From NCBI RefSeq assembly GCF_030013205.1, contig NZ_CP122648.1: 64,000 nt of DNA; one strand, 5' to 3'. The DNA is from Escherichia coli. Its GTDB lineage: Bacteria > Pseudomonadota > Gammaproteobacteria > Enterobacterales > Enterobacteriaceae. Below are positions 47,001 through 50,000 of the stretch, one piece after another (within the stretch, counting starts at the first letter, position 1; the number at the start of each line of letters is the position of its first letter). Made by a program: the position numbers.

Positions 47001-50000
47001 TATCCCGATGATTACCGGGGCGACAATCCTGTGCTTCTCCTTTACCGGTTTTGACGGCATCAGCAATCTGTCGGAAGAAACCAAAGATGCAGAGCGCGTG
47101 ATCCCGCGCGCAATTTTCCTGACCGCGCTGATTGGCGGCATGATCTTCATCTTTGCAACTTACTTCCTGCAGCTGTACTTCCCGGATATCTCTCGCTTTA
47201 AAGATCCGGATGCGTCACAGCCTGAAATCATGCTGTACGTTGCGGGTAAAGCGTTCCAGGTTGGCGCGCTGATCTTCTCCACCATTACCGTACTGGCGTC
47301 CGGTATGGCGGCGCACGCAGGCGTAGCGCGTCTGATGTACGTAATGGGTCGTGACGGCGTGTTCCCGAAAAGCTTCTTCGGTTATGTACACCCGAAATGG
47401 CGTACTCCGGCAATGAACATCATCCTGGTTGGCGCGATTGCCTTGCTGGCAATCAACTTCGACCTGGTAATGGCTACGGCGCTGATTAACTTTGGTGCGT
47501 TGGTGGCGTTCACCTTCGTTAACCTGTCGGTCATCTCGCAGTTCTGGATCCGTGAGAAGCGTAACAAGACGCTGAAAGATCACTTCCAGTATCTGTTCCT
47601 GCCGATGTGTGGTGCGCTGACCGTTGGTGCGCTGTGGGTTAACCTGGAAGAAAGCTCAATGGTTCTGGGTCTGATCTGGGCGGCTATCGGCCTGATTTAC
47701 CTGGCTTGCGTAACCAAGAGTTTCCGCAACCCGGTTCCACAGTACGAAGACGTAGCGTAATCTTACAAACCGGATGACATAATCATCCGGTAAATCTCAA
47801 AAAGCCGGAGTTTGTCGCTCCGGCTTTTTTGTGCACAGAAACCCCCCAGCTAGGCTGGGGGTTCCGGAAAGCTTTCAGCTTTAAGCCAGTTATTAAAACC
47901 CCTTTTGATTTGTTAAAACACCTTGCGGTCTGGCAACTGCAAGTGTCAAACAAGAAATCAAAAGGGGGTCCCAATGGGGAACGAAAAGAGCTTAGCGCAC
48001 ACCCGATGGAACTGTAAATATCACATAGTTTTTGCGCCAAAATACCGAAGACAGGTGTTCTACAGAGAGAAGCGTAGAGCAATAGGCAGTATTTTGAGAA
48101 AGCTGTGTGAGTGGAAAAGTGTACGGATTCTGGAAGCTGAATGCTGTGCAGATCATATCCATATGCTTGTGGAGATCCCGCCCAAAATGAGCGTATCCGG
48201 CTTTATGGGATATCTGAAAGGGAAAAGCAGTCTGATGCTTTACGAGCAGTTTGGTGATTTGAAATTCAAATACAGGAACAGGGAGTTCTGGTGCAGAGGG
48301 TACTACGTCGATACGGTGGGTAAGAACACGGCGAAGATACAGGATTACATAAAGCACCAGCTTGAAGAGGATAAAATGGGAGAGCAGTTATCGATTCCCT
48401 ATCCGGGCAGCCCGTTTACGGGCCGTAAGTAACGAAGTTGGATGCAAATGTCAGATCGTGTGCGCCTGTTAGGGCGCGGCTGGTAAGAGAGCCTTATAGG
48501 CGCATTTGAAAAACCTCCGGCTATGCCGGAGGATATTTATTGTTTCAGACGATCTCTTCCGCGTACTGCCAAAGCGCTTTTAACAGCGCCACTTTTTCTT
48601 TATCGTCGGCATACTGCTGCGCCAGCATCTGAATCTCTTCTGCATAGCCTTGTAAAAACTCTGGCGTGAAGACCTGGCGGCGGTGCTCCAGCCAGCGTTG
48701 CTGCTCGGCATAATCCAGCGTCCCCGGGAAGTTGCGTGCCCGATAATTGAACAACAGTTTTTCAATTCGTTTATCAACAAAAGTGATATCCAGTGCCGGT
48801 AAATTACGCGGCTCGGTTTCCAGCACAATTTTCATTGCTGCACGATCTGCGTCACTGAAAAAGCCGTTATAAAGCTGTGCATCCACGTTATCTGAAGGCG
48901 TAAACGGTTCGGCTTCCGCGAATATCGCCACCACTTTTTCACGCACTTGCGGATTTTCACGCAGAATTTTCAGGTTATCGAGGCAATGCTGACGATTAAT
49001 TCCCAGTCGGTCGACATCTTCCGGGCGTAGCGTATTCGCCTGGGCCAGCACCGGACATTTATTGATGTGTACCAGTTTAACCGGAACGGCGGCGTTATCG
49101 CCAAGATCGGCTTTTGCGGTATATAGACGCTCGCGCAATGTGTCGCTATCCAGTTCCAGTAATGGCGAAATGTCTCCTGCCAAATCCACCATAATTACGG
49201 CATTGCGATTTTCAGGATGCCACGCCAGCGGTGCCACCCAGCTTGTATTGCCGCGCCATGCCCCAAACATTCCGGAAACGTGAACCAGGGGTTTCATCTG
49301 CGGAACATCAATCAACGCCATCAGTTTGTGTTTATTACGATGGGTAAAGAGATAATCAAACAGGCGTGGCTGACGCGTTTTTACCAGTTTTGCCATCGCA
49401 ATAGTGGCGTACACATCAGCCATCGCATCGTGTGCGTTGCTATGTTCAATACCATTCGCTTTGGTTAAATGCTCAAGGCGAAAGCTCGGTAGACCGTCAT
49501 CATTTTCAGGCCAGTTTATTCCTTCCGGGCGCAGGGCATAACAGGCACGCATAACATCCAGCAAATCCCAGCGCGAGTTATCATGCTGCCAGCTCCAGGC
49601 GTAAGGATCGTAGAAATTACGATAAAAAACGTTGCGTGTGACTTCGTCGTCGAAACGCACATTGTTGTAGCCCAGAATACAGGTCTTCGGTACGGTAAAA
49701 AGCGAGTGAATACGGGCGGCAAACGCAGCTTCGTTTTCTCCTTTCGCCCGTGCTTCCTGCGGGGTAATACCGGTAATTAATACGGCTCCTGGCTGGGGTA
49801 AATAGTCATCCGCGGGCTTGCAGTAAAAGACTTCGGGTTCGCCGATGACATTGAATTCGCTATCGGTGCGAATGGCTGCGAACTGTGCAGGGCGATCTAA
49901 CGCGGGGTGCGTGCCAAAGGTTTCGTAATCGTGAAACAAAAAGGTAGATTGTTGCTTACCGTCATTCATCATTAGGTTAAATCCGTTATTTCTGCTATCT

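Follow-up and report, generated by a model that had tools for sequence, protein, structure and literature searches.

An IS200C copy in the short plaP–sbcB allele of a swine-associated Escherichia coli lineage

In the 64,000-nucleotide stretch of Escherichia coli DNA analysed here (hereafter the window; contig NZ_CP122648.1), an IS200C element lies between the convergent genes plaP and sbcB, where K-12 carries tsuA and tsuB (yeeE and yeeD). Our comparisons make it very probable that the element inserted into a short plaP–sbcB allele of a swine-associated lineage, and that the absence of tsuAB is older than the insertion and unrelated to it. The source of the window is this lineage, which comprises O139:H1 and related strains.

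The plaP–sbcB interval and the insertion

The gap between the two genes spans 47761–48544 (784 bp), from just after the plaP stop codon, whose last base is 47760, to the minus-strand sbcB stop codon at 48545–48547. Comparison with the empty site assigned 711 bp of this gap to the IS, leaving 70 bp next to plaP, its terminator included, and 3 bp next to sbcB (Table 1). This agrees with the original prediction of a gap of about 785 bp made up almost entirely of an IS. Removal of the IS from the window left exactly the 73-bp spacer of the empty site; 711 bp had been added and no base was missing.

Table 1 Features of the plaP–sbcB interval. Positions are those of the window.
Feature	Position	Strand	Basis or detail
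plaP, putrescine:H+ symporter	46402..47760	+	ORF and RefSeq annotation of strain K_EC180 (99.988% identical)
plaP stop codon	47758-47760	+	
Small inverted repeat CCGGATGA-CATAA-TCATCCGG, native spacer	47770..47790	+	Sequence
Bidirectional intrinsic terminator, native, common to convergent plaP and sbcB	47799..47830	.	A5, stem GCCGGAG / CTCCGGC, T6
IS200C element, GTGCACAG...ATATTTATT, 711 bp net insertion	47831..48541	+	Comparison with empty site
Rfam RF01405 STnc490 match (IS200 5'UTR / art200 region)	47841..47964	+	Profile search
Left-end subterminal hairpin, 8-bp stem (47843-47850 with 47854-47861), 3-nt loop TAG	47843..47861	.	Fold, -16.4 kcal/mol
tnpA 5'UTR stem-loop enclosing Shine-Dalgarno AAGGGGGT (47962-47969)	47899..47967	+	Fold
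tnpA, 152-aa Y1/HUH transposase, intact	47974..48432	+	Profile matches; HUH = H61-I62-H63, catalytic Y125, Q129
Right-end subterminal hairpin CCTCCGGC-TAT-GCCGGAGG	48514..48532	.	Terminator-like on both strands; -15.9 and -15.5 kcal/mol
sbcB, exodeoxyribonuclease I	48545..49972	-	ORF and K_EC180 annotation; stop codon 3 bp from IS right end

The native part of the spacer contains two structures. The small inverted repeat, judged by its sequence, belongs to the short plaP–sbcB allele and not to the IS; it is unchanged in empty-site genomes (L003–L005) and occurs with substitutions in Escherichia whittamii (L015). The terminator shared by plaP and sbcB folds at -18.2 kcal/mol on the plus strand (z -4.9) and at -16.6 kcal/mol on the minus strand, is identical in empty-site genomes, and its T-tail is the IS200C target. 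The pseudogenes suggested by the K_EC180 annotation were rejected for the window: yoeB is intact, so the frameshift flags were not carried over.

The insertion lies 3' of a short target without target-site duplication, as is characteristic of the IS200/IS605 family. A 4-bp duplication (TTGT) was considered and rejected, because the TTGT on the right belongs to the native spacer and no such repeat occurs at JJ1886 or other sites. At all sites examined, the IS200C left end is preceded by TTTTT, TTGTT or TTATT. Because of the flanking TTGT, the register of the element can shift by as much as 2 bp in each direction (47829-48539 to 47833-48543), and other IS200C copies match the window from about 47822/47825 to 48541.

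These features make the following course of events very probable. The starting state was the 73-bp short allele, consisting of the inverted repeat and one bidirectional terminator without tsuA or tsuB. IS200C landed just 3' of the terminator T-tract, 3 bp from the sbcB stop codon and with tnpA co-oriented with plaP; a clean gain of 711 bp without loss or duplication is what single-strand peel-and-paste by Y1/HUH transposases would predict. The terminator hairpin at the left end of the element would block read-through from plaP. On the other side, the right-end hairpin, followed by T5 on the minus strand, is now directly downstream of the sbcB stop codon; this hairpin and T-run would stand where the shared terminator had served sbcB, and sbcB may thus now terminate at the IS right end, as a pattern match and a fold suggest. 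Because the right-end structure would replace the shared terminator for sbcB, neither flanking gene is likely to be disturbed by the IS.

The IS200C element

The element belongs to the IS200 group of the IS200/IS605 family, as a plain member and not a variant. Its tnpA product matched NCBIfam NF033573 transpos_IS200 (147.7 bits, cut-off 55, E 1.9e-43) and Pfam PF01797 Y1_Tnp (model positions 2-121 of 121, E 4.4e-38), and RefSeq/PGAP annotates the identical protein, WP_000526135.1, as an IS200C family transposase at several loci. The original prediction of an IS200-type element encoding a 152-aa Y1 transposase was borne out by these matches and by the RefSeq label, and the search did return the IS200 family for the predicted ORF. 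Within the element of ~0.7 kb, tnpA, the ORF covered by the family search, is the sole one of at least 50 aa with a family match, and tnpB is absent; three other ORFs of this length are wholly nested within the stretch occupied by tnpA or by the left-end UTR. The two ends are not inverted repeats of each other. Hundreds of IS200C copies are at least 98% identical to the window copy, and seven copies aligned without indels. In this alignment, position 47842, immediately before the left-end hairpin, was changed from A to C in the window copy alone. A perfect hairpin had been predicted at 47842–47861; it is real and has an 8-bp stem, but 47842 is unpaired and the true start is 47843.

The 5' region of the element matched STnc490 over the full model (1-124) with 140.6 bits (gathering score 56, E 1.1e-29). 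The stem-loop in the tnpA 5'UTR folds at -37.2 kcal/mol (z -5.4), and none of 200 shuffles was equally stable. This stem-loop would hide the tnpA ribosome-binding site, and the element also carries the region predicted to encode the antisense RNA art200; together with the left-end terminator hairpin, these are the silencing features usual for such an element. A sigma-70 promoter scan of 47600-48700 returned no site, which fits the weak, undefined tnpA promoter reported for IS200 (PMC4513863).

The layout closely follows that of Salmonella IS200, in which a bidirectional left-end terminator occupies nt 12-34 and a 5'UTR stem-loop over the Shine-Dalgarno sequence nt 69-138 (PMC4513863). With nt 1 at 47831, the window element has its hairpin at nt 13-31 and its stem-loop at nt 69-137. 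Like Salmonella IS200 and E. coli IS200C, it has a single tnpA, a length of ~710 bp, and neither terminal inverted repeats nor a target duplication; it further shares with them the left-end terminator hairpin, the stem-loop over the Shine-Dalgarno sequence and the art200/STnc490 region, art200 being a prediction here. Its net insertion is 711 bp versus the 707 bp quoted for Salmonella IS200 (PMC4513863), and it has the private change at 47842; there are no further differences. IS1541 of Yersinia, also in the IS200 group, is a close relative that likewise expresses STnc490/art200 (PMC4513863). It has been reported between pheL and pheA in Yersinia, the attenuator-terminator region in other enterics; host and sequence differ from those of the window IS200C.

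Two further members, IS608 of Helicobacter pylori and ISDra2, serve as models of the family's mechanism. Like the window element, they have a subterminal hairpin at each end and insert 3' of a short target that is not duplicated, and the HUH histidines and catalytic tyrosine of IS608-type TnpA align with those of the window protein: H61/H63, Y125 and Q129 correspond to H64/H66, Y127 and Q131 of ISHp608 TnpA (2a6m). Unlike the window IS200C, IS608 and ISDra2 also carry tnpB. The targets of IS608 and ISDra2 are TTAC and TTGAT, whereas the IS200C copies compared here lie 3' of TTTTT or TTGTT beside a terminator hairpin. Both the window IS and the kind of site that it occupies are already known, and RefSeq annotates IS200C at this locus.

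The tsuAB slot in E. coli and related species

In K-12, the gap measures 1,520 bp and the order is sbcB–yeeD (tsuB)–yeeE (tsuA)–plaP, as the original prediction gave it. This thiosulfate uptake operon occupies the same slot, from the plaP terminator to the sbcB stop codon, and is wholly absent from the window. A tblastn search for TsuA/TsuB homologues elsewhere in the window gave nothing below E = 0.2, and the allele counts given below, rather than a whole-genome reading, suggest that tsuAB is lacking across the rest of the strain's genome too.

The original prediction offered, as one option, that tsuA–tsuB had been deleted in association with the IS. Two observations would fit an IS200 insertion that caused or accompanied such a deletion: K-12 has tsuB–tsuA exactly at the IS position, and K-12 homology ends at the plaP stop codon and restarts at the sbcB stop codon. 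A search of the window gap for remnants of the K-12 intergenic sequence gave only chance 10-14-nt matches. We consider deletion in association with the IS highly improbable, because plaP and sbcB are natively adjacent, separated by the 73-bp spacer with neither tsuAB nor IS, in 783 genomes, Nissle 1917 among them, and the window contains this spacer, complete to the base, plus the IS. Had the IS deleted adjacent sequence, its flanks would be incomplete; measured against the short allele of these 783 genomes they are complete. The short allele without IS200 is also found in E. whittamii and 43 other species loci among those listed. Moreover, transposition in the IS200/IS605 family is generally precise and is not known to cause deletions beside the insertion.

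A census of 5,426 complete E. coli genomes placed nearly all of them in three classes (5,417 together): the tsuB–tsuA interval as in K-12 (4,203 genomes), the empty short allele (783) and the short spacer with IS200C (431). tsuAB is thus missing from about 22% of E. coli. Direct reading of the empty sites in AR_0017, 72322051416_S37 and 2017-02-2CC showed plaP, 73 bp and sbcB.

The lack of tsuAB reflects an older polymorphism in gene content that E. coli has in common with other Enterobacteriaceae. A species scan with SbcB listed 80 loci, 72 of them informative, with E. coli, E. albertii, E. fergusonii and Salmonella not among them. Among these listed informative loci, 43 had the short plaP–sbcB arrangement and 21, from at least 10 genera, had tsuBA in the same slot. 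E. whittamii has the same 73-bp spacer with nearly identical sequence; one further close Escherichia locus (L014), which terminates in a different IS 284 bp beyond sbcB, gives no information. What lies between the plaP terminator and the sbcB stop codon varies among Enterobacteriaceae: the slot may hold tsuBA, REP elements, IS200, or an EF-G paralogue accompanied by an ArsR-like gene.

As to how the polymorphism arose, we lean slightly towards tsuBA being ancestral at the slot and the short allele being an old deletion, spread or recurrent, over the opposite course in which the short arrangement is ancestral and tsuBA was acquired. Apart from the 21 listed species in which tsuB–tsuA holds the same slot, TsuA identity to the K-12 copy (83-92%) is close to that of SbcB (82.5-92.7%; r = 0.77 over 21 loci), which fits long vertical residence followed by loss. 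The preference is tempered by the majority standing of the short arrangement among the listed loci, by its occurrence in E. whittamii with a near-identical spacer, and by flanking genes whose similarity does not split long- from short-allele E. coli, K-12 being as near the window as the empty-site strains; the loci listed, moreover, leave E. albertii, E. fergusonii and Salmonella outside. The other option in the original prediction, that the genes were never present in this lineage, comes closer, in that they were already missing when the IS arrived, whether through early loss or because this lineage never had them. Absence of tsuAB is expected to be tolerated, since in published growth tests a requirement for YeeE/YeeD showed only after deletion of cysPUWA.

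Terminator tails as insertion sites

We examined 11 distinct IS200C sites, and at every one the left end directly adjoins the hairpin and T-tract of a co-oriented upstream gene. By comparison, of 308 runs of at least five Ts in the window, only 6.8% have an upstream fold whose stability equals or exceeds that at the weakest of these sites. A preprint reports upstream-terminator enrichment to be strongest in the IS200/IS605 family. Some of this preference could be survivorship, because selection purges insertions inside genes. Tentatively, and with the odds in our view a little short of even, IS200C may be terminator-seeking, its TnpA setting the left end 5-9 nt past the terminator hairpin, at the end of the T-tail. 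Two features could account for this: possible pairing of the T-tract with the A-run that immediately precedes the left-end hairpin, and the resemblance of a hairpin with a T-rich tail to the element's own right end. Insertion at the T-tails of intrinsic terminators is probably why IS200C is found at this site.

Two junction types were distinguished among the insertions at plaP–sbcB. The exact window junction occurs in 18 genomes, all from swine. In the JJ1886/ST131 type, the insertion point is shifted onward by about 3 bp in the tail of this plaP terminator, with a left junction of TTTTTTGTT|GTGCACAG versus TTTTTT|GTGCACAG in the window and a right junction of ATT|TTCAG versus ATT|GTTTCAG. Genomes of this type are put at ~413, a figure that is 431 minus 18 and not a direct count; counting with a 50-nt junction probe was confounded by other IS200C copies beside similar terminators, which match too. 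The window and JJ1886 elements are equal in internal length, and the JJ1886-type insertion adds 712 bp versus 711 in the window, one extra T at the junction being unexplained. Empty sites with four Ts (GTTTTCAG), which would make the ST131-type junction exact, numbered none among at least 745 full matches. The extra base and the lack of a four-T empty site among these matches leave the element ends not fixed to the base.

Most simply, the ST131-type insertion is probably a second, independent event, the same plaP terminator apparently having been struck twice. We think it unlikely that a single ancient insertion is instead common to the swine O139:H1 and ST131-type genomes by descent or recombination, with later junction indels and with empty sites created by precise excision. 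All 431 genomes do share locus and orientation, the window and JJ1886 copies differ at 8 of 710 positions versus ~2% in the flanks, and the region adjoins the O-antigen cluster, known for frequent recombination; excision is precise in the IS200/IS605 family, from which empty sites could be secondary. A single insertion would, however, need two indels (3 bp left, 2 bp right) exactly at the junctions and none inside the element. The window copy also differs at only 2 positions from a copy that another strain carries at the kdsA site, but at 8 from the JJ1886 copy, which shares its locus. Finally, genomes of the swine lineage carry ~18-32 further IS200 copies, whereas the median genome has two matching places; this high copy number argues that the element was recently active there. 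We therefore favour two independent insertions.

As found, the insertion matters little: it is a standard IS200C copy, already known and annotated by RefSeq at plaP–sbcB in 431 complete genomes, on a common tsuAB-less allele that is not a consequence of the IS. Across Enterobacteriaceae, the thiosulfate-uptake genes tsuAB are nonetheless polymorphic, present or absent at a single fixed slot, and YeeE/YeeD phenotypes of K-12 therefore cannot be carried over to the swine lineage or to B2 strains, of which Nissle 1917 and ST131 are examples. The exact window junction cleanly marks the 18 genomes of the swine lineage. If IS200C does seek terminators, single terminators such as that of plaP would be recurrent hot spots, struck independently in swine O139:H1 and in ST131, and an element described as essentially immobile would in fact be active in natural E. 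coli lineages. The locus is a concrete case, open to testing, of IS200 insertion at terminator tails, in which a single terminator was probably struck twice, and insertion at such tails bears on how a near-silent IS persists without harm to its host.

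An IS200C element in the plaP–sbcB interval

The local gene order is yeeZ, yeeY, yoeI, plaP, tnpA, sbcB and dacD, and plaP and sbcB are separated by 784 bp, the interval given in the original prediction. The 152-aa ORF in this interval scored 147.7 bits against NCBIfam NF033573 (cut-off 55) and matched Pfam Y1_Tnp across the entire model, and its relatives among solved structures include IS608, ISDra2 and Sulfolobus TnpA. Residues H61/H63 and Y125/Q129 align with catalytic H64/H66 and Y127/Q131 of ISHp608 TnpA, supporting the IS200-type identification made from sequence alone. 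An identical protein, WP_000526135.1, is labelled IS200C family transposase in RefSeq, here and at other loci in other strains. The element is a complete, canonical copy, IS200C by its RefSeq label, and public genomes already carry annotation of it at this position.

Coordinates of features in the window
Feature	Position	Strand	Remarks
yoeB	43999–44253		intact
STnc240 (Rfam)	46181–46255	+	68.2 bits (gathering score 55); upstream of yoeI/plaP
plaP	46402–47760	+	
plaP–sbcB gap	47761–48544		
IS200C insertion	~47831–48541		711 bp
STnc490 (Rfam; art200 antisense RNA region)	47841–47964		140.6 bits
left-end hairpin	47843–47861		8-bp stem, terminator-like
tnpA 5' stem-loop	47899–47967		−37.2 kcal/mol, z −5.4
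Shine-Dalgarno AAGGGGGT	47962–47969		inside stem-loop
tnpA	47974–48432	+	152-aa ORF
right-end hairpin	48514–48532		second hairpin of element
sbcB	48545–49972	−	
pdu operon	~53800–64000		after tmaR

Comparison with IS-less genomes delimited the insertion (GTGCACAG...ATATTTATT), whose register is ambiguous by at most 2 bp either way owing to flanking TTGT. Seven IS200C copies from different loci aligned over 710 bp with zero indels and 2–16 differing positions. Counting nt 1 as 47831, the layout is that of Salmonella IS200: the left-end hairpin is the counterpart of its bidirectional terminator (nt 12–34), and the tnpA 5' stem-loop that of its stem-loop at nt 69–138 (PMC4513863). A scan found no sigma-70 consensus promoter, consistent with the weak, undefined tnpA promoter reported for IS200 (PMC4513863). 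Position 47842, directly 5' of the left-end hairpin, is C in the window copy and A in the six other copies compared. In IS608-type elements, the guide sequence is located just 5' of the left-end hairpin.

The window is E. coli sequence: over 47300–49000 it matches the complete genomes of 14 swine strains (O139:H1 and ETEC-labelled) at 100% identity, and strain K_EC180 matches the whole 64 kb at 99.988% identity with six gap openings. In the K_EC180 record, yoeB, wzy and pdu genes are annotated as frameshifted; the window yoeB is 252/255 identical to K-12 with zero gaps, and for this gene at least, one gap opening looks like an assembly error in the K_EC180 record. The pdu operon (propanediol utilisation microcompartment) occupies the position at which K-12 has the CP4-44 cryptic prophage.

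Short and long alleles at the plaP–sbcB slot

The K-12 order sbcB, tsuB (yeeD), tsuA (yeeE), plaP was confirmed as given in the original prediction, with sbcB and plaP 1,520 bp apart. Homology between the window and K-12 ends 2 bp past the plaP stop codon and restarts at the sbcB stop codon, and no TsuA or TsuB homologue was found within the 64-kb window. In AR_0017, 72322051416_S37 and 2017-02-2CC, plaP and sbcB lie just 73 bp apart with neither IS nor tsuAB, and the window gap is exactly this 73-bp spacer plus 711 bp. These empty sites, an arrangement that the original prediction named as refuting it, rule out replacement of tsuAB by the IS and refute the proposal that the IS caused the loss of yeeE and yeeD.

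Among 5,426 complete E. coli genomes, the slot held the K-12 tsuBA interval in 4,203, the empty 73-bp junction in 783 and plaP–IS200C–sbcB in 431, together 5,417; Nissle 1917 is an empty-site strain. These classes leave 9 genomes unaccounted for, and only 4,209 genomes match the tsuBA interval at all; short-allele genomes with tsuAB elsewhere would thus number a handful at most, a bound drawn from allele counts rather than read from the window strain's genome. Some occupied genomes have an additional IS in the same 1.7-kb plaP–IS200–sbcB stretch, namely IS1 in SCU-313 and ISEc52 in NR301. Absence of TsuAB should be tolerated, because YeeE/YeeD became essential on thiosulfate only after cysPUWA deletion (PMC11073785).

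An SbcB scan with one genome per species returned at least 80 loci, 72 of them informative among those listed. Among these matches, sbcB and plaP were adjacent (55–166 bp apart) at 43 species loci, tsuB–tsuA lay between them at 21 and other DNA at 8, and Citrobacter, Enterobacter, Kosakonia and Lelliottia each showed both short and tsuBA states. In E. whittamii the allele is likewise short, its 73-bp spacer being nearly identical, and an IS200 transposase was present at 0 of the 80 other-species loci listed. Among the matches listed, TsuA identity to K-12 (83–92%) spans the same range as that of SbcB (82.5–92.7%; r = 0.77 over 21 loci), which favours tsuBA having long resided at the slot and later been lost in short-allele lineages. 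However, the short state is the majority among informative loci listed, long and short E. coli alleles show no flank divergence, and the loci listed do not include the key outgroups E. albertii, E. fergusonii and Salmonella. Whichever direction this polymorphism took, the IS arrived second.

PlaP identity to the window protein (46402–47757) was bimodal among the matches listed (species loci L015–L093), at 85–88% in 51 loci and 96–100% in 20. The split was independent of genus and SbcB identity (97% for PlaP and 85% for SbcB in Enterobacter cloacae L051, for example), suggesting that plaP falls into two allele classes or has been exchanged between genera. Seven loci from Raoultella, Klebsiella and relatives have ~2.8–3.0 kb between sbcB and plaP; the contents of the one read (L039) include an ORF of 700 aa resembling EF-G and another of 103 aa resembling ArsR. 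Locus L085 has a 652-bp insert, and REP-like palindromes occur in the spacers of several Enterobacter and Lelliottia loci.

A shared terminator as probable insertion target

In the empty allele, convergent plaP and sbcB share one bidirectional terminator (A5, GCCGGAG...CTCCGGC, T6) with folds of −18.2 and −16.6 kcal/mol on its two strands, and the IS left end directly adjoins its T-tract. The IS lies past the plaP terminator, with 3 bp between it and the sbcB stop, so that no coding sequence is affected; sbcB is now cut off from the shared terminator. On the minus strand, the right-end hairpin is followed by TTTTT and has a terminator-like score, so sbcB transcripts probably end at this predicted terminator.

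The other IS200C sites examined lie 3' of ecnB, gndA, kdsA, htpX, carB, sseA, a prophage gene and a hypothetical gene, and beside an integrase gene. Each of the 11 distinct sites has a hairpin and then 5–9 T-rich bases that end at the left end, and tnpA is co-oriented with the upstream gene wherever one is annotated. By comparison, of the 308 T≥5 runs in the window, only 6.8% have an upstream fold at least as stable as that of the weakest IS200C site. As a pattern, terminator-tail targeting by IS200C therefore has good support, though selection against insertions in genes could be a partial source of it. A preprint reports an enrichment of terminator-like sequences immediately 5' of ISs, strongest for IS200/IS605 (10.1101/2025.07.22.666184), and Yersinia IS1541 has been reported between pheL and pheA. 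Following the IS608 paradigm, the T-tract would pair with the A-run that precedes the left-end hairpin, and targeting would be aided by the target resembling the right end of the element itself.

The exact window junction (left ...CTTTTTT/GTGCACAG, right ATATTTATT/GTTTCAG) occurs in 18 genomes, all swine-associated. Among the ~413 other occupied genomes (431 minus 18), the junction was sampled in JJ1886 and other ST131/O25:H4 strains and is unlike that of the window (left ...CTTTTTTGTT/GTGCACAG, right ATATTTATT/TTCAG); the two elements have equal internal length. A single insertion event common to both types would require two indels placed exactly at both junctions. Further against it, the window copy differs at 2 bases from the kdsA copy of another strain but at 8 from the copy that JJ1886 carries between plaP and sbcB. 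Two insertions ~3 bp apart are therefore simpler, and a double hit on one terminator is probable. For the JJ1886 type the net gain is 712 bp, which leaves one extra T unaccounted for, and none of the empty sites searched has this T. Copy numbers also argue against a single event: the 18 swine genomes have 19–33 matching places each, one being the plaP locus, versus a median of 2 among genomes with any match. This indicates a lineage-specific expansion and recent activity in the swine lineage of an element described as essentially immobile (PMC12594629). What is mildly new here is limited to the tsuAB polymorphism at a fixed slot in different genera and to a single terminator probably having been hit twice.
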